From positions 776,989-840,988 of the forward strand of contig MTMF02000009.1 in NCBI GenBank assembly GCA_002011125.2: a stretch of 64,000 nucleotides of DNA, given 5' to 3'. Below, piece by piece: positions 2,516-17,859 of this stretch (positions within the stretch are counted from its first letter, which is position 1; each line of letters starts with the position of its first letter). Made by a program: the position numbers and the translations under genes. This DNA comes from Candidatus Hydrothermarchaeum profundi. GTDB taxonomy: Archaea > Hydrothermarchaeota > Hydrothermarchaeia > Hydrothermarchaeales > Hydrothermarchaeaceae. The notes under the pieces were generated by a model. That model ran no database searches. It saw nothing but the letters and a program-made list of their open reading frames with translations, and had not been told where the DNA came from.

Positions 2516-2929
2516 TTATTTAAGAACCCAGATCAACTTTTTTCCAGCATGGTACATTGCTTTAAGACCATATTCCTTTGCAAGAGATAGGCCTGCTATA
2601 GTAAAGAGTTTTGTGAGAGGGGTGAGGTCTATTATAATATCGTAGCTTCTCAGATTTGCTTCTATTGCTTTCTTTAACGCCTCTCTTACTTTGTCCATCT
2701 CATGTTGATATACTTCGAACTCAAAAGTAATCTCTTCATCTCCGTAAGTATAGCCGGCGTCTCTTATCTTCTCTTGGGCAAGAGGTGTCGTAAAAGCAAT
2801 ATGTTTCTTGATCTTTATATTTTCTTTTTCAAGGAAGCCCAGAGCATCCTCAAGCATCTCAAGAGTCGTAGAGTCTGGCTTATTCGGGTCGTAAGTGTAT
2901 CCTGATATCAGTAAAATAGGAGCCTTAAT
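2516..2929 (-). CDS. Stand-alone CARF-domain protein (ring nuclease or sensor candidate)
   Basis: IIDLTPLTK resembles the CARF D-x-T-x-G-x-K motif. The frame extends upstream of ATG 2857 to give KAPILLISGY (CARF beta-1); probable ATT start at 2929 behind AGGCGTGA. Confidence 0.65.
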   Translation of the reverse strand: MKAPILLISGYTYDPNKPDSTTLEMLEDALGFLEKENIKIKKHIAFTTPLAQEKIRDAGYTYGDEEITFEFEVYQHEMDKVREALKKAIEANLRSYDIIIDLTPLTKLFTIAGLSLAKEYGLKAMYHAGKKLIWVLK

Positions 2930-3127
2930 CTCAAACTCACGCCTGAAATATTGGATTTTTTGGGGGGTGACGCTATTAGAGATCTCTTTTCCTTTTTTAT
3001 CTTTTAATGAAAATAGAAAAAATATAAATAAAAGTTTTTAAAATATAAACTTGGAGGCAGTTAGTGGGATTAAAGGAGGTTTACTCATGCTCTTTTGCAT
3101 ACTTGGGGAAGTTGTCTGGTGAGTGAG

Positions 3128-4864
3128 ATGAATGAATTAATACCTGAGCTTCATGACATTGGAAAATTACAGAAGAAATATAAACATAATTTTGAAGATG
3201 CTGGATATACATTTGAATCTAAAACTTGGAGAGGGATTTTAGAACATCACTGTTCTCGTAATTTTGAAAAATATCCCTTAAGTTTAGATACTTTCAAATT
3301 AAAAATAGCAGACAAATTAGCATCTGCGGTATCGAGAGAGTATCGTGAAGATGGATGTCCTATTTATAATGTTTATAAGCTATGGAATCCAACGCGCGAG
3401 GAGATAACTATTCCGCCTCTTAGAACTGAGAAAGATATCAAGGAATTAATTGAATTTACTGTTAGCGTATCTACTTTTGAAGATTTTGTAATAAGATATG
3501 AAAAGCTGTTGAAATATCGGACAGAAGATGCGCATCCAAAGTCTAACTTAACTAGTCTGTATACTCATATGTTGCTTACTGGAAAATTATATAGAATATT
3601 GTCCGCGATAGATGAGTATACGGTCCACCAAGAAATTTTTCAAAATAAGGATGCTGTTTGTAGAGCGATTAATGAAAAAATGAACGAGTGGAAACTACGA
3701 GTTGTGCGATGTAAAATAAATTTTTCTCAGAGTCCGATACGTGCAAAAGATATGAATGTTTTTGTGGCATTAAACACTTCTAACGATGAAATTAAGCACA
3801 AATTTAAGGACAATATTTTATTTTCATTTTCAAATGAACTTTTTTTAATCACTGTTCCTAGAGAGGACATTGTTGGCAAAATCTCTGCTCTAATAAGTAA
3901 AAATGGTTTTTGGATAGAAGTATATGGAGAAGATGATATAAAATTGAGCACGATTGCAAATAGAGGTACTAATATATTTGAAAATTTAAGGAATCCAAAG
4001 GTCGTACATTACCAGCTTGAAAAAGAAATCGCGCCTCCAATATGTGAAATATGTCAAATGAGAAAAGCTACTCCTGAAACTAGGTGGGTGGATGAAGAAA
4101 GTGGCATTATCGAGGAATTATGTGAATATTGTTTTAAAATAAGGCAAATACCTGAAGTAAGACTTAAGAAACTTGTAAACTGGTCGAGCGAGGCTGAAAT
4201 TAAGGTTGTCTATCTTAAAATTTCACTTTCGACAGAACAACTTATGCATACTCTCAACCAACTTTATAGAAACTACACTGGAAGCAATGAACATGTTTCC
4301 TTGTCAATAATCTCAGAATTTCAATGGGATTATGAAGAATTTCTTAAGGAATTTGTAAGGAGAATAAGTATCGCGTTTAATGAAGAGGACATTCAATTAA
4401 TTTTAAATGATTTTTTAGGGATAAAAATAGAAAGAACCTCTGATATTAAAAAAATATTAGAGATATATAGCCAAATTTTTAAACAATACTTTCCTGAATT
4501 TATACAAAAATCTCCGATAAGACTTTCGATTAGTTGTTCGAGTGCCAAATTTCCATTTTTCTGGCACTGGAGGATTTTAAACGATACAAAGGACGAAATA
4601 AATGTAAGCATGATCGGAAAGGGTGAGATGCATCTTAAATTTTCTAAACTTGATGAGTTGCTTAGCATAGATTTACCAAATACCCGCATGTTACACAACT
4701 TAGATAGAATATCGCAGATTTCTAAGAAATTAGCATGGATAATGCTTAATGATAGAAGTGACCGGAGAATGTATAAAGAGTTTGAGGGGTTAAAAAGAGC
4801 GGTACTGGCGACAGGGATTAGCTATTCGAGCATATTAACCTATGCAAAGATTATGGGTGATTAG
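3128..4864 (+). CDS. cas10: Cas10-like large subunit, HD nuclease intact, cyclase (GGDD) degenerate
   Basis: LHDIGK, EHH, IADKLAS and SLYTH motifs; Zn finger CEIC...CEYC; palm-2 GGDD position reads ILND; cas context. Confidence 0.85.
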   Translation: MNELIPELHDIGKLQKKYKHNFEDAGYTFESKTWRGILEHHCSRNFEKYPLSLDTFKLKIADKLASAVSREYREDGCPIYNVYKLWNPTREEITIPPLRTEKDIKELIEFTVSVSTFEDFVIRYEKLLKYRTEDAHPKSNLTSLYTHMLLTGKLYRILSAIDEYTVHQEIFQNKDAVCRAINEKMNEWKLRVVRCKINFSQSPIRAKDMNVFVALNTSNDEIKHKFKDNILFSFSNELFLITVPREDIVGKISALISKNGFWIEVYGEDDIKLSTIANRGTNIFENLRNPKVVHYQLEKEIAPPICEICQMRKATPETRWVDEESGIIEELCEYCFKIRQIPEVRLKKLVNWSSEAEIKVVYLKISLSTEQLMHTLNQLYRNYTGSNEHVSLSIISEFQWDYEEFLKEFVRRISIAFNEEDIQLILNDFLGIKIERTSDIKKILEIYSQIFKQYFPEFIQKSPIRLSISCSSAKFPFFWHWRILNDTKDEINVSMIGKGEMHLKFSKLDELLSIDLPNTRMLHNLDRISQISKKLAWIMLNDRSDRRMYKEFEGLKRAVLATGISYSSILTYAKIMGD

Positions 4865-5452
4865 ATGGAGTTTCTTGAATATAGGATAACTTCAGATATC
4901 CTTTGTATGGGGGAAAGAATAAAGAAAGGTACATTTAGGCCGTGTATTACTACAATTCCATATAGTCAAATTACTGGTGCTCTAAAAGCAATACTAGGTA
5001 GAGAAATTGCCGCTACTGGATGTTTAATTCGAGATGGGATACACAATAATGTAGAATATCTGATTTATTCGCCTAGAGATAGAAGTACTGAAACCAGCAA
5101 ATTGCCGCTAACGATACAAATTTTAACTAATGTTCTTGGAAGAGTCTTTATACCAAAGAATGATTCGAGTGAACTACCAGAACAGCTTTCAATAACTATG
5201 GGAGCACTTAAATCAAAAGGTATAGGAAGATGTAAATTAAAGAAGATTAGGAAAATTAAAAATCCTCGATTTAAGCGAGGAATGTTGAATACTCGTATTC
5301 CTCTCGATTTGAAAGAAAACTTTGGAATTAGAAATGTTATAAAACCACAGTATGGTTATTTATTTAGACCAACTTCTTCTACAAGCGGCGTTTATGTACT
5401 TTCTCTATTTGAAAACTCAGAAATTTACGGACCAGAATTTCTGATGAGGTGA
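4865..5452 (+). CDS. Cas5-group RAMP protein
   Basis: IPYSQITGAL and G-rich loop MGALKSKGIG; position after cas10. Confidence 0.7.
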   Translation: MEFLEYRITSDILCMGERIKKGTFRPCITTIPYSQITGALKAILGREIAATGCLIRDGIHNNVEYLIYSPRDRSTETSKLPLTIQILTNVLGRVFIPKNDSSELPEQLSITMGALKSKGIGRCKLKKIRKIKNPRFKRGMLNTRIPLDLKENFGIRNVIKPQYGYLFRPTSSTSGVYVLSLFENSEIYGPEFLMR

Positions 5453-5456
5453 GTAA

Positions 5457-5744
5457 ATGGATGAAATTGAGCAACTTCTTGAGGAAATAAAAAATGATTC
5501 GAATTTTAAAAAAACGAGATTTACCGCAAATTTTGTAAATGATGTAGCCGATGTCTTTGAAAAATATGGATTTGGAACTACAAGGACGTTCCTAATGGAT
5601 AAAAAAAGTCGCAGAGATTTGCACTTGCAAGCAGTAGCAATATTATCAATTTTAGAAAAATTTGAGAAAATAGAGAAGATTAAATTAAACAGAAGTATTG
5701 GGCGGTACATAATAAAAACATTAAATACATTAAAGAGGGGTTAA
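5457..5744 (+). CDS. Small helical subunit (Cas11/Csm2-like)
   Basis: 95 aa, predicted all-alpha, lies between the Cas5-like and Cas7 genes. Confidence 0.6.
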   Translation: MDEIEQLLEEIKNDSNFKKTRFTANFVNDVADVFEKYGFGTTRTFLMDKKSRRDLHLQAVAILSILEKFEKIEKIKLNRSIGRYIIKTLNTLKRG

Positions 5745-5745
5745 A

Positions 5746-6522
5746 ATGAAAGTAGAGCAGAAATATAAAGTGATTTTAGTTACTGAGGAGCCTTTTAGAA
5801 TTGGCGGACCAAAAGATCCACTTTCAGGAGCGGATAATCCTGTAGCTATCGTAGGAAGCAAACTAGTAGTGCCCGGACCTTCCTTAAAAGGAGCATATCG
5901 AGCAGAAATAGAGAGATTTTTAATAGACAGATATTATGACAAAATAAATAAAAGGTGGGTTCAGGAAAAAGAAAGCTTAATGCCTTGTATACCTGCGACT
6001 AAACTATCAAAGGATGAGGAGAAGCTAGTGAAAAATAGATTATATAGAAGTGTTGCCTGTCATTACCCTTGTGATAAAAGACGAGATAAATGTGGAAATA
6101 CGGAGCATTCTATTTGTCCAGCTTGCTATTTATTAGGCTCCCAGGGATTGAATGGATTTCTTAGGGTACCCTTCTTGTTTTCAGAGGCTTCAGCTAGCGA
6201 GTTATACTCAGCGAGGATAGATCGAGCAGTTAGTACAGTTGCGCAAGGTACAAACAGACCTTATTCGCTAGTACCGGATGGAACTACATTTGAAGGGACA
6301 TTGACGGTTTTAATCAAAGATGATATCCTCGGTTGGGAGCTGGGAAAACCTAGGCCTCTTAGCGATATTTCAGGCAAAGACATATGGTTACCAAGTCAAG
6401 AGTGGACTCAGGAGAGGATACTAAGTGAAATGATAGTCCAAAGACTTCAGAACATTAAAATCCTTGGCGGATATAAATCAAAGGGTTGCGGTAAGGTTAA
6501 AATAACAATTAAAGAAGTATAG
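5746..6522 (+). CDS. csm3: Cas7-group RAMP (Csm3-like) with Zn insertion
   Basis: PFRIGG..GADNP, PGPSLKGAYR, CPACYLLG and LGGYKSKGCG motifs. Confidence 0.85.
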   Translation: MKVEQKYKVILVTEEPFRIGGPKDPLSGADNPVAIVGSKLVVPGPSLKGAYRAEIERFLIDRYYDKINKRWVQEKESLMPCIPATKLSKDEEKLVKNRLYRSVACHYPCDKRRDKCGNTEHSICPACYLLGSQGLNGFLRVPFLFSEASASELYSARIDRAVSTVAQGTNRPYSLVPDGTTFEGTLTVLIKDDILGWELGKPRPLSDISGKDIWLPSQEWTQERILSEMIVQRLQNIKILGGYKSKGCGKVKITIKEV

Positions 6523-6564
6523 ATAAAAAAGAGCTATAGCTCGGTCCTTAAAATTTTTATATAG

Positions 6565-7263
6565 ATGAGATTCAAGACAACTTATTTAGTTCTTAGTACA
6601 GATAGGCCAGTCAAAGAAGAGGCTTCTAAGCTTAGAGGCTATATTGGTAACAAGTTTGAGGAGTATCCCATCCTTCATCATCATATAAGGGAAGTCGGCT
6701 ACTTATACACTTATCCTCGAGTGCAATACAAGGTGCTTGAAGGAACGCCTCACATCCTAGGGATAGAGGAGGGTGCGAAGGTATTGAAGGAGATATCAGG
6801 CGGCTTAAATGAGTTGGTATTGGGCAGAAGCCATTATACGGTTAAACAGAAAATACTCTATGAGCAGGAGGTAGAGCTTAGATCTTCTAGGAAGAAGCAG
6901 TATAGGTTTATAACACCTTGGCTGGCCTTAAATCCTGATAACTATAGAACCTATCAGAATATTGAAAATTGGAAGGAAAAGAAGGAGTTTCTAAACCGCA
7001 TACTGGTGGGCAACATACTCTCGATGTGCAAGAGCCTTGGTATAGTAGTGGAAAAGCATTTATATGCCCACACCCATCTTTATTCAAGAAAAGTAAATTA
7101 TAAGAATGCCCCATTAATGGGCTTCACAGGCGAGTTTAGAGTGAACTTTATTATCCCCGAGTTCTTCGGCTTGGGGAAGGGGGTAAGCCAGGGGTTTGGC
7201 GCAGTTAAAAATGAAGGTCGTGATCGACGACTACGGGGCCTACCTGAAGAAAAAAGGCAATAG
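6565..7263 (+). CDS. cas6: CRISPR endoribonuclease Cas6 (Cas6b-like)
   Basis: KLRGY, LHHH, YPRVQYK, TPWLALN and GLGKGVSQGFG motifs. Confidence 0.92.
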   Translation: MRFKTTYLVLSTDRPVKEEASKLRGYIGNKFEEYPILHHHIREVGYLYTYPRVQYKVLEGTPHILGIEEGAKVLKEISGGLNELVLGRSHYTVKQKILYEQEVELRSSRKKQYRFITPWLALNPDNYRTYQNIENWKEKKEFLNRILVGNILSMCKSLGIVVEKHLYAHTHLYSRKVNYKNAPLMGFTGEFRVNFIIPEFFGLGKGVSQGFGAVKNEGRDRRLRGLPEEKRQ

Positions 7264-8209
7264 GTTCATAGTATCCTCAGAGGAGAAGAGCGAGGAGTTT
7301 GCATCTGATAAGGTAACGCAGGTCATTATACTAAAGGGATCGGCGATCACTACTGATGCAGTAAAATTGGCAGCAGAGAAATGCATAGACATAATATGCT
7401 TGGATAGAAGCGGAAAGCCTTACGCTAGAATATACCCGTGCAAGCTAGGTGGCACCACGTTAACTAGAAGAAATCAGCTGGCAGCATATTCAACCTCTAA
7501 GGGAGTCTTTCTGGCTAAAGCTTTTGTAGGCGCTAAAGTTGAAAACATGTCTTATTTTCTTAAGTCACTAGCAAAGAGTAGAGGAAATAGTGTACTAAAA
7601 GAAGCAGGGAATTTGATCTTGAAATTTTCTAAGAATATAGATGATGTAGAGGGAAATATCGATACCGTGAGAAACAGGCTTCTAGGCATTGAGGGTGAAT
7701 GTTCTAAGACTTATTTCTCTGCCTTAAGCGAGGTATTACCTAAAGGGCTCTACTCTGGGGTAAGAACAAGGAGGCCTCCTAGGGATGCGTTTAATGCGAT
7801 GATAAGCTATGGATATGGTGTTTTATATTCTGAGATTGAGAAGGCGTGTATAATTTCTGGGCTAGACCCATATTTAGGCTTCTTGCATACGGATAGATAC
7901 GGTAGACCTTCGCTGGTAATGGATTTGATAGAGGAGTTTAGGCAGCCAGTGGTTGATAGAGCAATGGTAACTCTGGTTGCAAGAGGTCAAGTAGAGAAAG
8001 ACTGCGTTAAAAGAGAGGAGGGAGTGTATCTGAACAAGAAAGGAAGGAAAATGGCTATTGAAGCGATGATGTCTCGCTTGGAGTCAAAAATAAAGTATAA
8101 GGGCAGAAGAATCTCTATGGAGGATATCATATTGAAGCAGGCTAGGGAGTTAGTGGGCTTTCTTAACGGTGACCGTAGGTCATATAAGCCATTTGTCTAC
8201 AGGTGGTGA
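7211..8209 (+). CDS. cas1: CRISPR integrase Cas1
   Basis: GIEG..SKTYF, NAMISYGY, GLDPYLGFLH and DLIEEFR motifs. Confidence 0.97.
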   Translation: MKVVIDDYGAYLKKKGNRFIVSSEEKSEEFASDKVTQVIILKGSAITTDAVKLAAEKCIDIICLDRSGKPYARIYPCKLGGTTLTRRNQLAAYSTSKGVFLAKAFVGAKVENMSYFLKSLAKSRGNSVLKEAGNLILKFSKNIDDVEGNIDTVRNRLLGIEGECSKTYFSALSEVLPKGLYSGVRTRRPPRDAFNAMISYGYGVLYSEIEKACIISGLDPYLGFLHTDRYGRPSLVMDLIEEFRQPVVDRAMVTLVARGQVEKDCVKREEGVYLNKKGRKMAIEAMMSRLESKIKYKGRRISMEDIILKQARELVGFLNGDRRSYKPFVYRW

Positions 8210-8210
8210 A

Positions 8211-8513
8211 ATGCTAACTTGGGTGATATATGATATCTCTGATAATAGGCTGCGAACCCGTGTTTCTGAGAAGTGTAAAGACTACGGTATGGAGAGGTTA
8301 CAGAAAAGCGCCTTCCTCGGGGATCTCAGCAGGAATAACTCTGAGATGCTCGCTATAGAGATAGAGAAAATATTGGATGATGAGAATACTGTGGAAGAGG
8401 ACTGCGTATTCTTTTTGCCTATGTGTAGCTCCTGTATAAGCAAGAAGATAACGATTGGCAGAGGATTTGATGAAGAAGAATTTAAGGACAAATTCTACAC
8501 ATTCTTCGAGTGA
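8211..8513 (+). CDS. cas2: CRISPR-associated Cas2
   Basis: VIYDISDNRLR and RLQKSAFLG motifs. Confidence 0.95.
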   Translation: MLTWVIYDISDNRLRTRVSEKCKDYGMERLQKSAFLGDLSRNNSEMLAIEIEKILDDENTVEEDCVFFLPMCSSCISKKITIGRGFDEEEFKDKFYTFFE

Positions 8514-9100
8514 ATATAATGGACAAAGAGGGCTATTTCTCCGCAAGAGATATAGTAGACTACGCATACTGTCCTAGAACAATATACTTCCGCTACTGTA
8601 TAAAAGCAGGGAAAGAAAAAACGCCAAAAATGAATAAAGGGCAGGAGTTGCATGAGTCTTTCACAGACAAGTCTAAAAGAACAAAAATCGTGAGAAAGTT
8701 GCCAAGGCTCCCTAAGAGATACAGCGTCAGGCTATCCTCAAGAAAGTATCATTTCAATACGATGGTAGATTGCATTATTTTAGATAACTCTAAGGCTTAT
8801 CCAATAGAATTCAAATACTCTTTAAAGCCAAAATACCTATACAATACTCATAAGTATCAGCTTGTCGCGCAGGCAATGGCAATAGAAGAAGAGCTAGGTA
8901 AGATAGTGCCTTACGGTTACATAAAATATGTAGATGGTTCTACAGCCAGGGTTTCAATTACTCAAAAGTTAAAGGAGAAGGTAGCTAATATTCTCCTTGA
9001 GATGGAAGACATAATAAGGTTCGAAAGGCTCCCGAAAGAAACGTCATCGAAGAAGAGATGCAATTCGTGTTTTTACATAAACCTATGTAGAAGACTGTAG
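8510..9100 (+). CDS. cas4: CRISPR-associated exonuclease Cas4
   Basis: YCPR, PIEFK, QL..A and C-terminal CxxC...C Fe-S motifs. Confidence 0.93.
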   Translation: MNIMDKEGYFSARDIVDYAYCPRTIYFRYCIKAGKEKTPKMNKGQELHESFTDKSKRTKIVRKLPRLPKRYSVRLSSRKYHFNTMVDCIILDNSKAYPIEFKYSLKPKYLYNTHKYQLVAQAMAIEEELGKIVPYGYIKYVDGSTARVSITQKLKEKVANILLEMEDIIRFERLPKETSSKKRCNSCFYINLCRRL

Positions 9101-9229
9101 AAAGCCGAAAAATATAAATTCTCGGTAGGTCTTTATAAAGGATGGTGCAAAAAGGAGACTCACCTGAGAAGCCTTCTGAAAGGAGGAAAATCAGGCGAGT
9201 TTAGGCGAAAATAAGGAATTTTATAGCCT
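9101..9229 (+). promoter_or_regulatory. CRISPR leader
   Basis: Non-coding stretch between cas4 and the first repeat, with TATA-like boxes (AAAATATAAA, CTTTATAAAG). Confidence 0.7.
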
Positions 9230-11733
9230 GTTGCAGAAGTCGATCTAGTAAAACAAGGATTGAAACAGTCTACAGGGTCGCTAGTAGTTAAGGATACTAA
9301 TAGTTGCAGAAGTCGATCTAGTAAAACAAGGATTGAAACATGTTCCACAATCTAGAATATGAGCGAGAAATTCTTTGTTGCAGAAGTCGATCTAGTAAAA
9401 CAAGGATTGAAACCTTATACATCAGGCCATGTTCAACAAAATTACTGCACGTTGCAGAAGTCGATCTAGTAAAACAAGGATTGAAACAACTCAAACGAGG
9501 CACGTGCTTTGGCGGCCTCGTAGTGTTGCAGAAGTCGATCTAGTAAAACAAGGATTGAAACATCGAAGACGGAGTTGACAAAAACTCCAGCCTTTTCGTT
9601 GCAGAAGTCGATCTAGTAAAACAAGGATTGAAACCATAATATACCGAGATATACGAGGATATATAAAAACTTGTTGCAGAAGTCGATCTAGTAAAACAAG
9701 GATTGAAACTCCCAGACGAGATAGACGATACCGACTCTCTATACGTTGCAGAAGTCGATCTAGTAAAACAAGGATTGAAACCACCGGCACAGGCATGGCA
9801 GCCGCCAGGGGATACAGGTTGCAGAAGTCGATCTAGTAAAACAAGGATTGAAACGGGGTATACGTGCACCTCAGCGGCAGGGACGTCGACGAGTTGCAGA
9901 AGTCGATCTAGTAAAACAAGGATTGAAACGTTTCCAAGACTTGATATTTATGTAGATTCCTAGCAGTTGCAGAAGTCGATCTAGTAAAACAAGGATTGAA
10001 ACGTCTCAGTGAGCAGGCGGATAGACTTTGAAGACTACGGTTGCAGAAGTCGATCTAGTAAAACAAGGATTGAAACATGTTGATAGCGATAGTGATTTTG
10101 AGAGCGGATTAAAGAGTTGCAGAAGTCGATCTAGTAAAACAAGGATTGAAACTCTTGAACGGATGCATCTCTCGCCAGTCCCTTATCTCTGTTGCAGAAG
10201 TCGATCTAGTAAAACAAGGATTGAAACACCATAAAGCTATTGTTCAATATTCCGAGTGTAAACAAGTTGCAGAAGTCGATCTAGTAAAACAAGGATTGAA
10301 ACTTGCATTTACCGAGGAGCCTTATCTCAGTGCTTTTACCGTTGCAGAAGTCGATCTAGTAAAACAAGGATTGAAACAATTGCCGGAATTCCAGCCAGTT
10401 CTTTTCTATACGTACAAGTTGCAGAAGTCGATCTAGTAAAACAAGGATTGAAACCACTACGCAAAGGCACTAAGCGTAGGCTTCCAGAGGTAAGTTGCAG
10501 AAGTCGATCTAGTAAAACAAGGATTGAAACACCTTAACCTCTTTTTTTGCCTCAACACTATGAGACTTGTTGCAGAAGTCGATCTAGTAAAACAAGGATT
10601 GAAACTGTGACATACGGTCTTGATATATACACATTAAAGCCTGTTGCAGAAGTCGATCTAGTAAAACAAGGATTGAAACTCCTTAATAGTCTTTCCAACT
10701 CAAAGAAATTATCTTCAGTTGCAGAAGTCGATCTAGTAAAACAAGGATTGAAACATATTTATCAACAGATATTACCTCAAATTTTCTATCAGTTGCAGAA
10801 GTCGATCTAGTAAAACAAGGATTGAAACTGTGACATACGGTCTTGATATATACACATTAAAGCCTGTTGCAGAAGTCGATCTAGTAAAACAAGGATTGAA
10901 ACTCCTTAATAGTCTTTCCAACTCAAAGAAATTATCTTCAGTTGCAGAAGTCGATCTAGTAAAACAAGGATTGAAACATATTTATCAACAGATATTACCT
11001 CAAATTTTCTATCAGTTGCAGAAGTCGATCTAGTAAAACAAGGATTGAAACATCATATAGAGCGTCTAAGAACTTATTCCAATTTCTGTTGCAGAAGTCG
11101 ATCTAGTAAAACAAGGATTGAAACTCCTCACTTAGCTCGATGCCCGCCTCATACTTATCTATAATAGTTGCAGAAGTCGATCTAGTAAAACAAGGATTGA
11201 AACTGCTCGGCATTACTCAGCTCTTCATACCATTCTGTAGCGTTGCAGAAGTCGATCTAGTAAAACAAGGATTGAAACAGATCCTCAAACATATTTCATC
11301 ACTCCTTACATTTTTTTTGTTGCAGAAGTCGATCTAGTAAAACAAGGATTGAAACAAATAATCCAGGATTAAACCAGTATGCTGTTAGCTCATTAGGTTG
11401 CAGAAGTCGATCTAGTAAAACAAGGATTGAAACGGGATTTTCTGCAACTCTCTGTCTAATATCTTTTGTAAGTTGCAGAAGTCGATCTAGTAAAACAAGG
11501 ATTGAAACTGGTGTAGCTTCGTGTTGTGTCAAATTTAATATCCTCGTTGCAGAAGTCGATCTAGTAAAACAAGGATTGAAACAATTCATTTTTCAATTTC
11601 CAAACTCTTGGCGTCTTTTTGTTGCAGAAGTCGATCTAGTAAAACAAGGATTGAAACCCTGCCAAGCCTTTCAACGTTGCAATCTGAACTGGCAGAGTTG
11701 CAGAAGTCGATCTAGTAAAACAAGGATTGAAAC
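9230..11733 (+). CRISPR. CRISPR array, 34 identical 37-bp repeats GTTGCAGAAGTCGATCTAGTAAAACAAGGATTGAAAC and 33 spacers (about 35-42 bp)
   Basis: Repeats read directly; the 3' ATTGAAAC handle and leader position give + orientation. Confidence 0.99.
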
Positions 11734-11811: not shown

Positions 11812-12120
11812 ATGGAGCCTAAAAGAATCAAAGAACTCGTTGAAAATGATGACTTCGTTATTTCGAGCCACGCAAGAACGAGAATGTTCCAGAGGAATGT
11901 CTCTACTGATGAGATTAAAAGCATTATACTCCTCGGTGAAGTAATTGAGGAGTACCCAGATGACGAGCCCTGTCCTTCGGTCCTAATCTTAGGTTTTCTA
12001 AAGGATGCTCCCTACCATGTTGTTGTGGCAGAATGCTTAGACCATGTTAGGATAATAACAGTTTATAACCCAGAAGCGGATAAATGGGTTGACTACCGGA
12101 AAAGGAGGAGCCGAAATTGA
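11812..12120 (+). CDS. DUF4258 family toxin
   Basis: SSHARTRMFQRN, GEVIEEYPDD, PYHVVVA and IITVYNP motifs. Confidence 0.85.
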   Translation: MEPKRIKELVENDDFVISSHARTRMFQRNVSTDEIKSIILLGEVIEEYPDDEPCPSVLILGFLKDAPYHVVVAECLDHVRIITVYNPEADKWVDYRKRRSRN

Positions 12121-12362
12121 AGCCTAGGAAATGTGGCCTGTGTAAGGGAAGACTTCAAAAAGGAAAAACGGAATTCACAGTAAAGGTTGAGAAGACGATC
12201 CTCTCTATTAAGGATGTGCCAGCCTATGTATGTCAGGAGTGTGGAGAGGCCTACTTCACCCCAAGGATCTCGCGGAAGATCGACAAGGTAATGAAGGAGT
12301 TTCACGAAGGCAGACTTTTGGCTTATCCAATCGCTGCTGGAGAAATCAGGCTCGAAGCCTAA
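12117..12362 (+). CDS. YgiT-type zinc finger (MqsA-like) antitoxin
   Basis: CGLC...DVPAYVCQECGEAYF. Confidence 0.88.
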   Translation: MKPRKCGLCKGRLQKGKTEFTVKVEKTILSIKDVPAYVCQECGEAYFTPRISRKIDKVMKEFHEGRLLAYPIAAGEIRLEA

Positions 12363-12403: not shown

Positions 12404-12590
12404 TTTGCAGGTTAAATACTAGAGGGAGTTATTAGATTGAGGCTATATACTGGGAGGTTATTAATAGCCTCAGTAAGTTCTATGATTCCGTTGCAGAAGT
12501 CGATCTAGTAAAAGGAATTGGAATGCTCTCGTCAACGAAAGCAAACTCCAGTGCTTATTCAGGTTGTAAAAGTTAATTTCGTAATTTTTC
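12404..12590 (+). CRISPR. Degenerate repeats, detached array end or mini-array
   Basis: 12490-12513 is identical to the first 24 nt of the repeat; weaker copies at 12404-12443 and from 12563. Confidence 0.6.
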
Positions 12591-12707: not shown

Positions 12708-12909
12708 GAAGATTATGTCTACCACAATAATGGTTCGTGAGGATCTCATGAAGATGCTTAACAAATTGAAAAAGGAGACCGGAGCAAAAAGCTATGACGA
12801 GTTGCTAAGGAAGCTACTAAAGAGAGCGAAGAGATTGGAAAAAACCCATTTTGGGACTCTGCCGGATATTAAGAGCTTTGAGAGGGAGGAACTTGACCGT
12901 TTTGATTGA
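12706..12909 (+). CDS. vapB: VapB-type antitoxin (RHH)
   Basis: STTIMV..., KSYDELL; overlaps the PIN gene. Confidence 0.8.
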   Translation: MKIMSTTIMVREDLMKMLNKLKKETGAKSYDELLRKLLKRAKRLEKTHFGTLPDIKSFEREELDRFD

Positions 12910-13267
12910 CTCTTGGGCCTGGATAGAATATTTTAAAGGCTCGGAGGCAGGGGCTAAAGCGAGGAAAATCATCGAGGGCGATGAGGAGTCCATCGTGAGC
13001 ACGATAAACCTGGCAGAGGTCTACCAATGGATTCTCAGGTTTTATGGTGAAAAGACTGCAGATGAGAAGATAGAGGTTATTAAAAAGAGGTGTTTTGTGG
13101 TAGATGTTGACCCAGAAATTGCGATAGCTAGTGCAATGATTAAGCACGATATGGAATTTGGTTTGGGCGATGCTATCGTGCTAGCTACTGCCAGGCGTGA
13201 GAATGCTAAGGTGTTGACAGGCGACCCAGATTTTGAAAACCTGGAAGATGCGGTATGGCTTGGTTAG
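12893..13267 (+). CDS. vapC: VapC PIN-domain toxin
   Basis: LIDSWAWIEY, GDAIVLATA and LTGDPDF motifs; probable TTG start. Confidence 0.9.
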   Translation: MTVLIDSWAWIEYFKGSEAGAKARKIIEGDEESIVSTINLAEVYQWILRFYGEKTADEKIEVIKKRCFVVDVDPEIAIASAMIKHDMEFGLGDAIVLATARRENAKVLTGDPDFENLEDAVWLG

Positions 13268-13320
13268 GCTCCGTTATAGAATCCTGAAGCACTTAAAAGT
13301 TATCTGGAGGTGAGCTAAAA

Positions 13321-13449
13321 TTGAGATACTGTCCGCTACTTAACAAGCCTTGTGATACTAAATGTGAGTGGCGAAGGGAAGATAAGTGCGTACTGCATGT
13401 TATTGCAGACGCTGTCGGAGAGATTGCGTTGTCTTCACCGATAATTTAA
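13321..13449 (+). CDS. Small Cys-rich protein (42 aa), below the ORF-track cutoff
   Basis: GGAGGTGA RBS then TTG; MRYCPLLNKPCDTKCEWRREDKC... Confidence 0.55.
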   Translation: MRYCPLLNKPCDTKCEWRREDKCVLHVIADAVGEIALSSPII

Positions 13450-13454
13450 ATAAA

Positions 13455-13775
13455 TTAAATATACTCTGAATTCTTCAACACTCTTGCTTTATAGGGGCCT
13501 GAAAATATTTCTAAGTTAAGGATTTCTTCCTCACTTATGATTGAAGGGTCATAAATAATGGTCCCAGAGTTATTCTTCTGACTTATTTCTGCTCTCAGTA
13601 TGCCATGCGTATTCGTCAGGTACGCCTGAATGGTAGCAGCGCAACTTGGACAAGTCATACCCTCTATCTCAAGCTCGAGGAGTCTGGCATTCGACGGTAT
13701 CTCCTTAGTCTGGGTTTCTGCAGAGCCGACACATCCTATAAAAAATAGTAGCAAGATTAAGATAACTCTTTTCAT
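13455..13775 (-). CDS. HMA-domain lipoprotein (MerP/CopZ-like, exported)
   Basis: Signal peptide with lipobox FIGC; GMTCPSC. Confidence 0.85.
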   Translation of the reverse strand: MKRVILILLLFFIGCVGSAETQTKEIPSNARLLELEIEGMTCPSCAATIQAYLTNTHGILRAEISQKNNSGTIIYDPSIISEEEILNLEIFSGPYKARVLKNSEYI

Positions 13776-14554
13776 GTCATCACCACAGAAAAAGCTAGGT
13801 AAATCCCAACAACAGCTATTATGATTCCGCTGAATTTCTTTATTCTATTAGTTGAAACAGCTAAATTCCTTATTAAAGTGTCCTTTGAGTATGCTACTAG
13901 GTACGAGACCGTCACCATGAGGATCGCTTTTGCTAGAGCATAGCTTAAAAAAGCTAAGAGTCCAATAGAGAGCATTCTGTTAAACAATGGGTAGATAACC
14001 AATACTAGGAAAATTGGGAGAGTACATCCAAGCGCAGTAGCTCCATAGGCTATCCCAAACAAAAAGAATGGCAATGGTCCACCGTCTTTACTCTTAGAAT
14101 ATAATCTACCAGCAGCAGAGCTAAGATTGTCAAGATAAAATGAGCCAGTATAAAGTAGGACACCTAAAAAGATGAAAATAAAGCCAATAAAAGGCTTAAA
14201 ATACACTAAAAGGGGGCTTATAGCAGACCCTAAGATTGAGAATAGCACTCCTAGAATCAAGTAGAAACAGAGTATCCCAGATGCTGTTGCCAGCCCCAAA
14301 TAAGCAGGACCTATACTCCTTCTTGTATCTAACCCCAAGTAATAGGAAGCATATCCTGGGAGAAGAGCAAAAGCGCAAGGAGCAAAAAAAGATGCTATAC
14401 CAGCGAGGAATGCAAACAAGAGAAAAAAAGCATCACTTTGCTTTATTCTTCCTACCTCATGCAGTACAAAGTTGTTCCATAGATACCAGCCTGCAACCAT
14501 AAGAAGAGCGAAGCCTATGGTGACGTTTAATAAAAAAGTATATTCTCTTTTCAT
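13772..14554 (-). CDS. CcdA/DsbD-like transmembrane thiol-redox protein
   Basis: FFAPCAFALLP and ALGCTLP Cys pair; multiple TM helices. Confidence 0.85.
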   Translation of the reverse strand: MKREYTFLLNVTIGFALLMVAGWYLWNNFVLHEVGRIKQSDAFFLLFAFLAGIASFFAPCAFALLPGYASYYLGLDTRRSIGPAYLGLATASGILCFYLILGVLFSILGSAISPLLVYFKPFIGFIFIFLGVLLYTGSFYLDNLSSAAGRLYSKSKDGGPLPFFLFGIAYGATALGCTLPIFLVLVIYPLFNRMLSIGLLAFLSYALAKAILMVTVSYLVAYSKDTLIRNLAVSTNRIKKFSGIIIAVVGIYLAFSVVMT

Positions 14555-14865
14555 GCTACTATATACCCATGATTGAGGAGGGCCTGCCTAAACTCTGAAT
14601 CTTTGGTCTTGGAGGGATCAAAGGAAACTTCTACAAGCTTTGTTTTAATATCTACCTTAACCTCATAAGCACCATCGAATTCTAGGATAATTTTTTTAAT
14701 GGTTCTCGCGCAGCCCTCACATGCCATATTTTCAACTTTAAAACTAACTGTCTGTAGTGGATAACCTTCAGACAGAGTTTTAGCATCTTCTCTGCTCTCA
14801 CTTGAAGATCGACGCAGAAGGGAAAATAGTTTAGCTAACATCATCATCAGCGGATTAGATAACAT
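14551..14865 (-). CDS. HMA-domain metal chaperone (CopZ-like)
   Basis: NMACEGC motif. Confidence 0.8.
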   Translation of the reverse strand: MLSNPLMMMLAKLFSLLRRSSSESREDAKTLSEGYPLQTVSFKVENMACEGCARTIKKIILEFDGAYEVKVDIKTKLVEVSFDPSKTKDSEFRQALLNHGYIVA

Positions 14866-14883
14866 TTACGAAAATTTTCGTAA
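14866..14883. promoter_or_regulatory. Perfect 18-bp palindromic operator between divergent metal genes
   Basis: TTACGAAAATTTTCGTAA. Confidence 0.75.
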
Positions 14884-14905
14884 CGGTAATAAATTATTTG
14901 TATAT

Positions 14906-15457
14906 ATGGCTGAAATCTTTCAAAAGCCGGTTAAGGTGAAAAATCTAATTGCGTTGGATGTGAGTAAGGCTCGGGCACTAGAAGATCCTCTCCGCATCAG
15001 GATACTTGACTTCCTCATACAAAAACCGATGTCTATCGAAGACCTAGCTAAGGAACTAAAGGAGAGAGGGATCGAAAAAGCTCCAACAACTATTAGGCAT
15101 CATATTGAAATTCTCAAAAAAGCAGGACTCATAGAGCTTACTAGACTAAAAGAAGCAAGGGGAGGCATGTTGAAATATTATGCTTCTAACACCAAAATAC
15201 TAAACTACAAAATTCCAGAAGACTTCGATGATAGGCTGAAGACATCTATTGAAAAAGCTAGAGAGGAAGTTAAACACCTGCTGGCAAAACTGCTTCAAGA
15301 ACATGGTGAAGAAATAAAAGCAGTTGCAGAGGACCTGAAACCGTGCCCTTATTGCAGCACCCAACACTTTATTGAGTACGTGTTAATCCAAATCCTAAAT
15401 AGGGCATTGGTGGAAGCTCTCCAGGAGCACAGATATCCTGCTCTAGAGGGAATGTGA
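14906..15457 (+). CDS. ArsR-family transcriptional regulator with C-terminal CPYC metal site
   Basis: ALEDPLRIRIL, TIRHHIEILKKAGLI and PCPYC..QH motifs. Confidence 0.85.
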   Translation: MAEIFQKPVKVKNLIALDVSKARALEDPLRIRILDFLIQKPMSIEDLAKELKERGIEKAPTTIRHHIEILKKAGLIELTRLKEARGGMLKYYASNTKILNYKIPEDFDDRLKTSIEKAREEVKHLLAKLLQEHGEEIKAVAEDLKPCPYCSTQHFIEYVLIQILNRALVEALQEHRYPALEGM

Positions 15458-17859
15458 TGGAAAAACATCACATAAGGATAGGAAGGATGTCCTGTTCGTT
15501 TTGTGCAGAGACCATCAAGAAAGCTCTTACCAGGGTAGATGGAGTAAGCAAAGTGAATGTAAGCCTTGCCCATGAAGAGGCTCTTATAGAATACGATCCA
15601 GAGAAGGTTGACGCTGGGAGATTGGATGAGATATTGATGCAACTTGGGTATACTGTCCGTGACCCAAGGAAAATGAGGACTTTTGAAGAGGAAGAAGTTG
15701 AAATAAAACGAGAGAAACAGAGGCTTCTTATATCGGCTGTTTTTACTGGCGTAGCAGTGGTATTGATGATCCTCATGCGGTTAGGATACCAGCACCTCTG
15801 GTTCAAGTGGCTGATGATGGGGCTGGCACTAATGACAGTATTTGGCCCGGGATTTTACATTTTGAAGATGGCACTTTACTCTCTCCGCAGAGGAATATTG
15901 AATCAGCACGTGCTATTAGAGTTTGGAGCGTTTGCGGGACTAACGGGTGGATTCGTGGGATTCCTCATAAAGGACTTCCCAATTGCTGACTTCTTCGCCG
16001 TAGCTGTTTTTATTACAACTTATCATATTCTCTCAGGTTATACATCGTTGATCGTCCGTACCCGCGCCTCGCAAGCCGTGAGAAAATTGCTGGATCTTCA
16101 GCCACAGAAGGCTAGAGTAATCAGAGACGGTAAAGAGAAAATGGTGCCGATTGAGGGGGTAGTGAAAGGAGATTTGGTGAGCATACGTCCGGGTGAAAGA
16201 ATCCCTGTCGATGGAGAAGTAATAGACGGTTATTCTGCTGTAGATGAGAGCATAGTAACTGGTGAATCTATTCCCATTGATAAGAAACTAGGTGACGAGG
16301 TAATCGGAGGATCATATAATCAGCTAGGAAATCTCTTAGTGAGGGTTTCACGGATAGGCGAAGAAAGCTTCCTCCAGCAAATTGCCAGACACATCGAGGA
16401 AGCCAGGGCAATGAAGCCAGGAATTGTTCAAGTAGTAGACAAAGTACTCAAGTATTATGTTCCAGTAGTACTATTATTTGCTGCTGCAGGCATGGTAATC
16501 TGGACAGTAGGAGCATGGCTAATCAAAGGAGAGACAAACCTTATCCGGGGCACTTTTGCTGCACTCGCCGTTTTAATAATGGGCTATCCATGTGCTCTTG
16601 GAATGGCTACGCCTCTAGCGATGATCCGTGGGGGCGGATTAGCTGCGGAAAAAGGGATCTTAATGCGCTCTAGCAACGCATTTCAGGCTTTTAAAGAAGT
16701 CAAAAAGCTGATACTCGATAAAACAGGCACTATAACGAAGGGAAAGCCGGAGGTAACTGAGGTTGTATCTTTAAGTAAGATTCCAGATAGGGAGATAATT
16801 ATGATGGCAGCATCAGTTGAAAAGCATTCAGAGCATCCTCTTGGCAAGTCTGTAGTGGAGCACGCACAGAGCCTAGGCGTTGAGTTAAAGAAAGTCAAAA
16901 AATTTTCAGCTGTTCCAGGCGAAGGCGTACGAGCAGAAATGGGTGGGAAAGTTATCCGAGTAGGAAGTCTAAGGTATCTAAAAAAGGAGGGAGTATTAAT
17001 ATCTAGAGGTTCTCAGGAGGCTAAAGCTCTCGAACAGCAAGGGAAAACCGTAATAGCAGTTTCAGTAGGCAGAGAACTTGTAGGTCTCATAGCAGTAGCT
17101 GATGCATTGAAGGAGGATGCGGTAGAAGCCATTCGCAGAATAAAAGAAGCCGGTTTAGAGCCTGTGATGATAACTGGGGATAATCAGCTGATAGCACGTG
17201 TAGTGGCAAATGCTGTCGGCATTGAAGAGGTGATAGCTGAAGTTTTGCCCGAGGAAAAGGCGGAGAAAATAAGAAAGTTGCAGGAAGATGGCTACCGAGT
17301 AGCTATGGTGGGAGACGGAATAAATGATGCTCCTGCTCTTATGCAGGCAGATATTGGCATTGCTATTGGAACTGGGACAGATATAGCTATAGAATCTGCA
17401 GATGTGGTCTTAATCGGTGGAAGTTTAAACGCTATTGTGGATGCCTATTATATTGGAAAAAACTCCTATAAGAAGACGGTTCAGAATCTTATCCTCGCCT
17501 TTAGTTTTAACGGCATAGGTGTGCCAGCAGCTACTACAGGGCTAGTACACCCTGTCTGGGCGATGGTTGCAATGGTAGCTAGCGTGAGCACAGTGTTATT
17601 GAACTCCTTTGGCGGTAGACTATTGCCTACCCGGAGAAAATTTAATAAAGAACTTAGAAAAGTCACTTTCAGAGTCCCGACTATGCACTGCGAGAAATGT
17701 CTCTCTACTATCGCAAAAAGATTATCCGAAATAGAGGGAGTAAACGACATCAAAGGAAGTGTATTAGAGAAGACAGTTACAGTAACCTGTGATGGTAAGA
17801 GAGGTCTAGAGAAAAAACTAAGAGAAGAAATAACAAAACTAGGCCATGTAGCTGGCTGA
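15454..17859 (+). CDS. copA: P1B-type heavy-metal-translocating ATPase (CopA-like)
   Basis: N- and C-terminal HMA, TGES, YPCALG, DKTGT, SEHP and GDGINDAP motifs. Confidence 0.92.
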   Translation: MMEKHHIRIGRMSCSFCAETIKKALTRVDGVSKVNVSLAHEEALIEYDPEKVDAGRLDEILMQLGYTVRDPRKMRTFEEEEVEIKREKQRLLISAVFTGVAVVLMILMRLGYQHLWFKWLMMGLALMTVFGPGFYILKMALYSLRRGILNQHVLLEFGAFAGLTGGFVGFLIKDFPIADFFAVAVFITTYHILSGYTSLIVRTRASQAVRKLLDLQPQKARVIRDGKEKMVPIEGVVKGDLVSIRPGERIPVDGEVIDGYSAVDESIVTGESIPIDKKLGDEVIGGSYNQLGNLLVRVSRIGEESFLQQIARHIEEARAMKPGIVQVVDKVLKYYVPVVLLFAAAGMVIWTVGAWLIKGETNLIRGTFAALAVLIMGYPCALGMATPLAMIRGGGLAAEKGILMRSSNAFQAFKEVKKLILDKTGTITKGKPEVTEVVSLSKIPDREIIMMAASVEKHSEHPLGKSVVEHAQSLGVELKKVKKFSAVPGEGVRAEMGGKVIRVGSLRYLKKEGVLISRGSQEAKALEQQGKTVIAVSVGRELVGLIAVADALKEDAVEAIRRIKEAGLEPVMITGDNQLIARVVANAVGIEEVIAEVLPEEKAEKIRKLQEDGYRVAMVGDGINDAPALMQADIGIAIGTGTDIAIESADVVLIGGSLNAIVDAYYIGKNSYKKTVQNLILAFSFNGIGVPAATTGLVHPVWAMVAMVASVSTVLLNSFGGRLLPTRRKFNKELRKVTFRVPTMHCEKCLSTIAKRLSEIEGVNDIKGSVLEKTVTVTCDGKRGLEKKLREEITKLGHVAG

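Follow-up and report, generated by a model that had tools for sequence, protein, structure and literature searches.

The CRISPR array at positions 9230..11733 (+) of the 64,000-nucleotide stretch of DNA analysed here (the window) undergoes a real switch in composition after its twelve newest spacers. Judged by composition, spacers of the older block appear to run antisense to genes, as is known for type III immunity that depends on transcripts, whereas the newest block carries no antisense bias and is indistinguishable from random orientation. New to this analysis are the simultaneous shortening of the spacers, the mosaic composition of the adjoining cas locus and the sense position of spacer 9 relative to a tyrosine-integrase motif. 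A search of the 97.65%-complete genome yielded a single effector, of type III-F, and none that targets DNA. The likeliest reading of the break is that spacers were recently taken up for a time without selection, and not that targeting switched to DNA.

Anatomy and polarity of the array

Array A consists of 34 identical 37-nt repeats ending ATTGAAAC, which enclose 33 spacers (30 unique) spanning 9267-11696, in agreement with the location given in an earlier note made from the letters of this DNA. Finer readings in that note were also reproduced: its base counts for spacer 20 (9 C, 2 G) and spacer 12 (12 G, 2 C) are correct, 8/8 quoted peptides occur in the orientation assigned to them, and spacer 28, said to be antisense to an RBS plus ATG, is the reverse complement of AGGAG-N9-ATG. 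A leader with a TTTATAAA box (9104..9229, +) precedes the array, and alignment of both upstream regions showed it to be 100% identical to the leader of a second array (B) with the same repeat, the 126 nt upstream of array B being the same as the 126 nt 5' of the first repeat of array A. At the far end lies a degenerate terminal repeat (12490..12526, +) whose first 24 nt are those of the repeat and which diverges thereafter (26-nt exact match). The shared 126-nt upstream region and the degenerate repeat at the opposite end place the leader at the left, so that the newest spacers have low coordinates. Within the trailer end of the array sits a toxin-antitoxin-like pair of DUF4258 and YgiT-type zinc-finger genes (11812..12362, +; Pfam DUF4258 2.6e-25, NCBIfam YgiT_finger 1.4e-11). 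An Rfam search of the 64-kb window gave no match.

Three repeat-spacer units are tandemly duplicated without any change, spacers 19-21 recurring as spacers 22-24 (10569..11014, +; two 223-nt copies, 100% identity), a feature absent from the earlier note. The duplicate was removed for statistics, leaving 30 unique spacers, of which 12 form block 1 (spacers 1-12, the newest; 9267..10115, +) and 18 form block 2 (spacers 13-33, older; 10153..11696, +).

A step in composition and spacer length

The purine fraction is 0.549 in block 1 and 0.406 in block 2, and permutation over the 30 unique spacers places the best split after spacer 12 (p ~0.001). The same split is found for a 4-mer sense/antisense score (change-point permutation, p ~0.001), and a frame-aware score on the same spacers splits best after spacer 17 when ranked (p = 0.036), its raw form giving a non-significant change point (p = 0.16). 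The significant skew change that the earlier note had asked for is present, with a GC skew of +0.059 in block 1 vs -0.309 in block 2 (p = 0.002) and an AT skew of +0.152 vs -0.129 (p = 0.0017). Coinciding with this compositional break is a break in spacer length, from a mean of 38.4 nt in block 2 to 36.8 nt in block 1 (Mann-Whitney p = 0.0038; change-point p 0.009-0.014). GC content averages 0.451 in block 1 and 0.375 in block 2; its best split falls after spacer 17 (0.446 vs 0.352, p = 0.17), with GC in spacers 13-17 still at the higher level of block 1. No trend was found within either block, which disfavours a gradient relative to a step. Three control arrays of the same genome, namely B (which together with array A holds 46 unique spacers) and the orphan arrays C1 and C6 on the contigs so named, gave change-point p values of 0.26-0.83 for purine fraction and 4-mer score, and of 0.21-0.80 for length; array B, with the same leader, shifts in the same direction as array A, non-significantly (p 0.26-0.62; length p = 0.54).

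Orientation relative to genes

Coding strands of the host are purine-rich (0.561), as are those of a resident integrated element (0.559), and each spacer was assigned an orientation by composition, every such call being 76-81% accurate per spacer. The 4-mer classifier (76% accurate, and still 72% accurate on the GC-rich resident element) called 10/12 spacers of block 1 sense vs 2/18 of block 2, and the frame-aware classifier (81% accurate) called 8/12 vs 3/18 (Fisher p = 0.0086), so that antisense calls amount to 16/18 and 15/18 in block 2, respectively, and to 2/12 and 4/12 in block 1. The estimated sense fraction of block 2 has its maximum (MAP) at 0 with a 95% interval of 0-0.37, and that of block 1 at 0.69 with an interval of 0.25-0.93 that spans 0.5. 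Of the strand-polarity switch proposed in the earlier note, the break at 12/13 and the antisense-like character of the older block are thus borne out, but the interval of block 1 does not carry the claim that its spacers are truly sense. Motifs of an RBS plus start were found sense in two and antisense in three of the 30 spacers, too few to be of use, and the first and last four spacer bases revealed no convincing PAM-derived or mirrored motif. Arrays beside six related III-F loci, with 2-12 spacers each, are too short for a test of strand bias.

The mapping of spacers to protospacers advocated in the earlier note yielded none in any collection searched, and orientation therefore rests on composition. 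A blastn-short search of the genome itself with 110 spacers of four arrays gave 26-nt alignments as the best non-array matches (spacer 9, 26/38; spacer B05 of array B, 29/37). The whole array matched 21 records among GenBank phages, all at E >= 0.8, and a plasmid search gave one record (E 0.2), while searches of 61 relatives and of every one of the 35 genomes in the order returned related repeats and weak matches only; of five matches inspected, four cover 22-26 of 35-38 nt in housekeeping-type ORFs and one is an integrase. Exact 25-27-nt words of 6/30 unique spacers (12, 26, 8, 27, 2, 3) had 0 matches in viral_contigs, as did spacer 4 in genome_contigs, spacer 1 in metagenome_contigs and the array A repeat in both of the latter collections, from which records of the source genome may be absent.

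Protein homology placed a single spacer of array A. Spacer 9 (9855..9892, +) is sense to a tyrosine-integrase catalytic-region motif (VYVHLSGRDVD), and when six-frame peptides of 50 spacers from arrays A and B were compared with the genome it alone stood out, with an 11-residue match (10 identities) to each of two integrase genes (E 2.6e-6 each). At the nucleotide level it is identical to its homologues at 26/38 and 30/38 positions, and 3/3 homologues are in the sense orientation. Spacer B05 appeared weakly in the same comparison, sense to a gene of the resident integrated element encoding 649 aa (29/37 nt identical); this protein, used as bait, found no relative in viral_contigs or genome_contigs.

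Effector and composition of the cas locus

Type III-F is a subtype of the 2020 CRISPR classification, and the locus preceding array A belongs to it, combining a Cas10f with HD motifs, a single Cas7, Cas5 and Cas11f with the lack of GGDD and of a working cyclic-oligoadenylate effector. The large subunit gene cas10f (3095..4864, +; PADLOC Cas10a|Cas10f 3e-111) encodes HD nuclease residues H20, D21, H51, H52 and D73 that are invariant in 6/6 aligned Cas10f proteins. This protein is free of GGDD: where a cyclase motif would stand, its conserved C-terminal site has a GKGEM-like sequence, and its central GEDD lacks conservation among the five relatives. There follow cas5 (4865..5452, +; PADLOC Cas5_IIIf 7.1e-61), the small subunit gene cas11f (5457..5744, +; PADLOC Cas11f 8.3e-32) and cas7, encoding the single backbone RAMP subunit (5746..6522, +; PADLOC Cas7_IIIf 9.1e-63; NCBIfam Csx7 1e-12, below cut-off). 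A description of III-F with an HD motif and no cyclase motif, in the relevant part of PMC11229360, agrees with this gene set.

Adjoining these genes are cas6b, predicted to encode the repeat-cleaving endoribonuclease (6565..7263, +; Pfam Cas6b_N 1.4e-29, Cas6b_C 5.5e-43), cas1, which matches an I-B-type model best (7196..8209, +; TIGR00287 2.5e-89, PADLOC Cas1b 7.3e-103), cas2 (8169..8513, +; Pfam CRISPR_Cas2 1.7e-17, PADLOC Cas2b 4e-27) and cas4 (8510..9100, +; TIGR00372 1.4e-31). Judging by its sequence cas4 looks intact, with what we take to be the nuclease-type and C-terminal CxxCxxxxxC motifs of Cas4. The 337-aa Cas1 has a Cas1 domain only and no reverse transcriptase gene lies in 3095-9100, so this is not an RT-Cas1 system. 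Elsewhere in the genome there is no further cas1, the one RAMP match is cas7f, and the four weak matches to cas3 (cas3_core) reach 73 bits at best against a cut-off of 102.45; thus no effector signature of type I, II or V was found. Nor does this look like a type I-B system, as searches of the assembly with cas3 and RAMP models gave no cas3 over the cut-off and no RAMP besides cas7f, and I-B-like character is confined to cas6b and the adaptation genes. By homology to Csm/Cmr complexes, the III-F complex would be RNA-sensing, transcripts recognised through the crRNA activating its nuclease.

In composition the cas locus is a mosaic that falls into two parts, the III-F effector genes being AT-rich and cas6b-cas1-cas2-cas4 GC-rich. 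Effector genes have a GC3 of 0.21-0.31 and the second block one of 0.43-0.49, around a host mean of 0.357, which puts them in the 0.3rd-17th and the 90th-96th percentiles of host ORFs, respectively; the step is seen between neighbors, from 0.305 in cas7f to 0.464 in cas6b. Gene order is conserved through cas6b-cas1-cas2 in the closest III-F locus, to which identity is 54-62% for Cas5, Cas11, Cas7 and Cas6b and 29% and 28% for Cas1 and Cas2. On the opposite strand lies a CARF-like gene fragment of 113 aa (2516..2857, -; PADLOC CARF_m5 1.1e-15, covering only profile positions 95-195 of 195). Its open frame extends to 3037 with no ATG, GTG or TTG, it has no Pfam match and no effector domain, and the locus holds no cognate cyclase; it may be what remains of a former type III system with signalling. 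The mosaic composition and this start-less remnant beside a cyclase-less Cas10 make module exchange at some time plausible.

Origin of the break

We tentatively propose, at somewhat short of an even chance, that the older spacers were selected for transcript pairing and that a later epoch was added without such selection. Array A would then hold two spacer epochs of one transcript-dependent type III-F system. In the older epoch (18 unique spacers) the pyrimidine-rich antisense signature would have been imposed by positive selection, because only crRNAs pairing with invader transcripts would switch on the Cas10 HD nuclease; with an integrase that has no reverse transcriptase, an antisense bias must come from selection. 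In the newer epoch the same cas1-cas2-cas4 module would have added 12 spacers at the leader end with DNA from either strand, and as these were not filtered for transcript pairing no antisense bias would arise. Likely sources are uptake once the cell was already protected and integrase-bearing integrative elements. Spacer shortening at the same site and the mosaic of the cas locus suggest a discrete event between the epochs, e.g., re-assembly or transfer of the locus, with interference presumably RNA-guided throughout.

Experiments on the type III system of Thermus thermophilus, in the relevant part of PMC7515739, provide a precedent, in that uptake without selection drew on both strands and selection created the strand bias; where a read carried two new spacers, those from the 'cold region' were leader-proximal in 98% of cases, i.e., acquired after a protective one. 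Natural type III arrays are biased toward the coding strand (PMC8482600, in the part bearing on strand). The block 1-like GC of spacers 13-17 would fit protective and then unselected spacers taken from the same elements, although the GC split itself has p = 0.17. Several observations sit less well with unselected uptake, which by itself predicts no shortening and a sense fraction of one half, less than the 10/12 called by the 4-mer score. A run of 12 consecutive unselected spacers also far exceeds the one extra spacer of the Thermus experiments (PMC7515739, same part), the shift in array B behind the same leader is non-significant, and orientation calls are composition-based with no protospacer found. 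Even so, recent spacers unfiltered by selection, which the earlier note had offered as its alternative, fit the data and the Thermus experiments better than the effector swap that it preferred, and its interpretation is overall partly supported.

That swap would mean that the present effector, acting at the DNA level or regardless of strand, needs no transcript-pairing crRNAs, and that spacers acquired after it are unbiased. We regard this as very improbable. Direct support is missing: a complete III-F module of full type III architecture (Cas10-HD, Cas5, Cas11, Csm3-like Cas7), RNA-sensing by homology, adjoins the array, there is one cas1, and no cas3 over the cut-off or other type I, II or V signature. 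The unbiased spacers are moreover the newest, those in which the imprint of today's RNA-guided effector would be looked for, and an exchange explains neither their shortness nor their sense lean. The outlying GC3 of the effector genes relative to cas6b-cas1-cas2-cas4 and the CARF-like remnant do speak for an exchange, and a full-text literature search on III-F found no experimental study. In its specific form, to which we give an equally slight chance, the AT-rich III-F block would have been imported recently in place of a type III effector with a cyclase (the CARF remnant being its relic) and would not need antisense crRNAs, e.g., by sensing DNA or by acting whichever strand is transcribed. 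Against an exchange stands also the closest III-F locus, which keeps the same order through cas6b-cas1-cas2, its Cas6b being as similar as the effector proteins. Selection need not be involved if instead the rule of spacer uptake changed, through Cas4/Cas1-Cas2 or host trimming factors or by fusion of two arrays, altering both spacer length and the side that takes the PAM end during integration. Where genes are purine-rich, a pyrimidine-rich PAM occurs more often on their antisense strand, so that a flip in integration would shift a set from leaning antisense to leaning sense: TCC, TCT, CTC, CCC and TTC are 66-69% antisense in host genes, which a flip converts from ~0.33 to ~0.67 sense, close to the 0.69 of block 1. 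Length and composition breaking at one site, the low identity of Cas1 and Cas2 within a mosaic locus, internal duplications showing that arrays recombine, and Sulfolobus Cas4 proteins that set PAM, spacer length and orientation (bioRxiv 10.1101/486738, in the part on Cas4) all fit such a change. It is nonetheless unlikely, since 34/34 repeats and both leaders are identical, which is hard to square with two integrases or a foreign array, Cas4 looks intact, terminal-nucleotide profiles hold no convincing mirrored motif, array B has no length break, and PAM skew alone yields at most ~69% antisense, at the edge of the block 2 interval.

A true difference in orientation might also be absent, the blocks deriving from mobile elements of differing composition or strand asymmetry, or the split being an accident of small numbers. 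With 30 unique spacers, a split picked after looking, non-independence among spacers of one element and a raw frame-aware score lacking a significant break, this gains some support, and spacers 4, 8, 9 and 11 of block 1, at 51-69% GC like the genome's GC-rich integrated elements, indicate that sources differ. It is doubtful all the same: permutation scans over all splits give p ~0.001 for two measures, GC and AT skew both move as gene strand predicts, host and GC-rich resident element alike have purine-rich coding strands, and three control arrays show no break. Conversely, the sense lean of block 1 could be genuine if its spacers came from resident elements such as plasmids or integrative elements, the type III response killing or curing cells with antisense spacers against expressed resident genes so that sense spacers alone survived, a filter akin to the transcription-dependent prophage tolerance by type III systems that Goldberg et al. 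reportedly described in 2014. The sense calls of 10/12 and 8/12, a purine fraction near that of coding strands, the sense orientation of spacer 9 to an integrase motif of the genome's integrated elements and that of 2/2 spacers with a resident homologue (spacer 9 and B05) would agree with this filter. It appears improbable, since matches between spacers and the genome are too poor for targeting (26/38 and 29/37 at best), the block 1 interval includes 0.5, and 2/2 gives p = 0.25.

Significance and comparison with known systems

To our knowledge type III-F is among the least studied CRISPR subtypes. Array A offers a natural test of whether type III strand bias is purely a matter of selection and of how long unselected spacers persist. 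Its old block bears an ordinary, documented type III signature, and its new block is an unexplained, modest deviation on 12 spacers. Were the break due to a change in effector or uptake rule, arrays could serve to date CRISPR module exchange, and under the import reading this one would be a natural before/after record, an antisense-biased old block against an unbiased or sense-leaning new one.

In Pyrococcus furiosus, Cas4 reportedly governs the PAM as well as the length and orientation of spacers. Array A resembles the Cas4 control described for Sulfolobus islandicus (bioRxiv 10.1101/486738, same part) in that length and orientation-related composition change together at a Cas4-encoding locus; it differs in that no PAM can be derived and Cas4 looks intact, and that work defines orientation by the PAM and not by transcription. 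As in type III tolerance of resident elements, a cell carrying integrase-bearing elements would take no harm from sense spacers against them, but here no resident element is closely matched and block 1 has no firm sense bias. The locus shares with type III-F as set out in PMC11229360 (relevant part) the cas10f-cas5-cas11f-cas7 arrangement with a single Cas7, HD motifs, no cyclase motif and no working CARF/SAVED effector, and departs from it in being joined to an I-B-like cas6b-cas1-cas2-cas4 of very different codon composition. Compared with the arrays of the Thermus experiments and the survey, as far as these are described in the relevant parts of PMC7515739 and PMC8482600, array A has a 12-spacer unbiased run, a sharp break and a change in length, its orientation being derived from composition and not from mapped protospacers. 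As in the selection-driven type III bias of those two sources, its older spacers look antisense by composition, and its unselected spacers would lie nearer the leader than protective ones.

CRISPR Arrays of the Genome and Their Polarity

Array A (9230–11733) consists of 34 identical 37-nt repeats ending ATTGAAAC and 33 spacers of 35–42 nt, of which spacers 22–24 are identical to 19–21 through an exact 223-nt tandem duplication of three repeat-spacer units (10569–11014), leaving 30 unique spacers. The usual 8-nt crRNA tag is the repeat end on the + strand, a 126-nt leader with a TTTATAAA box precedes the first repeat on its 5' side (9104–9229) and is 100% identical to the sequence upstream of the sister array, and a degenerate repeat (12490–12526) lies beyond a DUF4258/YgiT gene pair. 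Together these features place the leader at the left and make spacers 1–12 the newest, thus upholding an assumption of the earlier note, whose details on the spacers of this array all proved correct on re-checking. The gene pair itself (DUF4258 and a YgiT-type zinc finger, toxin-antitoxin-like, 11812–12362) sits inside the trailer end, between the last full and the degenerate terminal repeats. Further along, 12851–17859 holds a PIN/VapC-like gene followed by a heavy-metal cluster comprising two HMA-domain proteins, an ArsR-type regulator and a copper-type P-type ATPase.

The sister array (array B; 18 repeats, 17 spacers) is an orphan without adjoining cas genes, located 14 kb upstream of array A and outside the window (L001, a stretch of the same genome, 12732–14041), and shares with array A its repeat and, without any mismatch, its 126-nt leader. 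Its neighbors are an aconitase-X gene and a HEPN/nucleotidyltransferase pair. One spacer occurs in it twice (spacers 7 and 10), which together with the tandem duplicate in array A shows recombination within arrays. Two small contigs, C1 of 2638 nt and C6 of 1959 nt, contain nothing but CRISPR arrays. Their repeats differ from that of array A and end in ATTGAAAG and, read on the reverse strand, in ATTGAAAT, and no cognate cas genes were found in the assembly.

A Break in Composition, Length and Inferred Orientation

Coding strands of the host are purine-rich (0.561, GC skew +0.165, AT skew +0.094 in 1006 long ORFs), and genes of a GC-rich integrated element in the same genome have a purine fraction of 0.559. 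Among the 30 unique spacers of array A this fraction is 0.549 for spacers 1–12 vs 0.406 for spacers 13–33, and a change-point test scanning all splits with permuted spacer order located a break after spacer 12 (p about 0.001), both by purine fraction and by a 4-mer sense/antisense score. A shift in GC skew, for which the earlier note had proposed a test, is likewise present (p = 0.002) and is accompanied by one in AT skew (p = 0.0017). A frame-aware score placed the split after spacer 17 when ranked (p = 0.036) and was not significant when raw (p = 0.16), owing to the strongly outlying spacer 10. Spacer length changes in the same place, averaging 36.83 nt in spacers 1–12 vs 38.44 nt in the 18 older ones (Mann-Whitney p = 0.0038), with a change-point after spacer 11 (p 0.009–0.014). 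Neither block shows an internal trend, and none of arrays B, C1 and C6 showed a break (p 0.26–0.83 for purine and 4-mer score, 0.21–0.80 for length).

Orientation was assigned by a 4-mer classifier (76% accurate on held-out host 38-mers), which called 'sense' 10 of 12 new vs 2 of 18 old spacers, and by a three-periodic Markov classifier (81% accurate), for which the counts were 8/12 vs 3/18 (Fisher p = 0.0086). Corrected for classifier error, the sense fraction is 0 for the old block (95% interval 0–0.37), which therefore reads as antisense-biased, and 0.69 for the new block (0.25–0.93), which lacks this bias and is indistinguishable from random orientation. The polarity switch described in the earlier note thus stands for the antisense-reading old block and for the disappearance of its bias, but the 'sense' reading of the new block is not separable from random orientation. 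Spacers of C1 read as strongly antisense (sense fraction 0.15, interval 0.04–0.37), and those of C6 do not (0.69).

No protospacer was found for any spacer in the genome itself, phages, plasmids and relatives, or, for selected spacers, in viral, genome and metagenome contigs. The sense frame of spacer 9, VYVHLSGRDVD, matches a catalytic-region motif of two tyrosine-integrase genes of its own genome (10/11 residues identical, E 2.6e-6 each) and, in 30/38 nt, one integrase of a related genome, with the orientation of the gene in all three matches. Similarly, spacer 5 of the sister array (B05) is sense to a 649-aa gene of an integrated element on contig C8 (29/37 nt identical). Neither match is close enough to represent the real target. 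The GC content of spacers 4, 8, 9 and 11 is 51–69%, and that of the genome's integrated elements is about 0.46–0.56. The contig C8 element (L029, 115–132 kb, GC 0.46–0.52) encodes a tyrosine integrase, a DnaA-like ATPase and a run of co-oriented genes (156–916 aa) without family matches; searches of viral and genome collections yielded no relatives of it. On contig C16 (L030), a defense island comes after an integrase fragment and includes type I restriction-modification genes (R, M, S) and a Piwi-domain protein adjoining a SIR2-like protein.

The Type III-F Locus

Upstream of array A and on the same strand lie cas10f (3095–4864), cas5 (4865–5452), cas11f (5457–5744) and cas7 (5746–6522), matching PADLOC III-F models at 3e-111, 7e-61, 8e-32 and 9e-63, respectively, followed directly upstream of the array by cas6b, cas1, cas2 and cas4 (6565–9100). 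Cas10f retains its HD motifs (H20, D21, H51, H52 and D73, invariant in 6/6 aligned proteins), and inspection of protein and alignment found no GGDD motif, in agreement with PMC11229360, which describes III-F systems as generally having the HD nuclease but neither cyclase motifs nor effectors. At the sequence level the locus is of type III-F. In the 2.19-Mb genome (19 contigs, 97.65% complete) cas1 has one match, no cas3 exceeded the cut-off (best 73 bits vs 102.45), and neither RAMP proteins besides cas7f nor a PF01881-type Cas6 were found. As there is no second RAMP and no cas3 above cut-off, and the C1 and C6 arrays lack cas genes, no interference module other than the III-F complex was found that could use array A.

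Compositionally, the cas locus is a mosaic. Relative to 1592 host ORFs (mean GC3 0.357), GC3 is 0.21–0.31 in cas10f, cas5, cas11f and cas7 (0.3rd to 17th percentile) and 0.43–0.49 in cas6b, cas1, cas2 and cas4 (90th to 96th), with a sharp step from cas7f (0.305) to cas6b (0.464). The closest III-F locus found, in a Thermoplasmatales MAG, shares this gene order as far as cas6b-cas1-cas2, with identities of 43% for Cas10f and 54–62% for Cas5, Cas11, Cas7 and Cas6b, but only 29% for Cas1 and 28% for Cas2; the histories of the adaptation and effector modules are therefore separate. Divergent from the locus, upstream of the Cas10 lacking a cyclase motif, is a CARF-like fragment (2516–3037, - strand), a 173-codon frame whose first ATG/GTG/TTG is codon 61, so that its N-terminal strand-like stretch lacks a usual start. 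This could be an ancillary gene in decay. In a Bacteroidota MAG (L020, 3734–11438) a III-F effector block lies directly after cas5b and cas3b of a type I-B system, showing that the two kinds of module are neighbors in other genomes.

Possible Origins of the Break

By homology, the III-F complex would carry Cas6b-made crRNAs, pair with invader transcripts and then activate the Cas10 HD nuclease. Domain searches found no reverse transcriptase with the CRISPR integrase, which thus samples DNA of either strand. In Thermus (PMC7515739), strand bias arises only through selection of protected cells; once a protective spacer is in place, later additions are unselected and lie closer to the leader. We tentatively favor a history of two epochs, in which the old spacers were selected and the new block would reflect uptake without selection for transcript pairing, possibly in part from GC-richer integrase-bearing elements, as the GC content of spacers 4, 8, 9 and 11 may indicate. 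Three things weaken this reading: unselected uptake gives no reason to expect a length shift, block 1 leans to sense, and a run of 12 unselected spacers is long. A changed uptake rule would account directly for the length shift. Pyrimidine-rich trinucleotides fall 66–69% on the antisense strand of host genes, so that integration in the opposite orientation could raise the sense fraction from about 0.33 to about 0.67 even in the absence of selection, and Cas4 proteins are known to control length and orientation (bioRxiv 10.1101/486738). However, neither the repeats nor the two leaders show any difference, and Cas4 appears intact, making such a change unlikely.

As the comparison covers 30 spacers, none of them traced to a source, the orientation difference might itself not be real, which we also consider improbable. 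A tolerance filter, by which only sense spacers against resident elements survive, would fit the two sense-oriented integrative-element spacers (9 and B05) and seems quite doubtful. The earlier note had suggested a possible exchange of the effector, with a change to DNA-level or strand-independent targeting, to which the mosaic locus and the CARF relic lend some plausibility; yet the present effector has type III architecture, no DNA-targeting effector was found in the genome, and the closest relative has the same gene order, so that this origin is very improbable.

A sharp loss of bias within one array together with a change in spacer length was not reported in the full-text literature searched, a novelty that rests on 12 spacers and on composition. 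The antisense bias of the older spacers is, by comparison, documented behavior of type III arrays: the coding-strand bias resulting from selection is present in natural type III arrays (PMC8482600), and the old block of array A fully fits this selection-driven bias.
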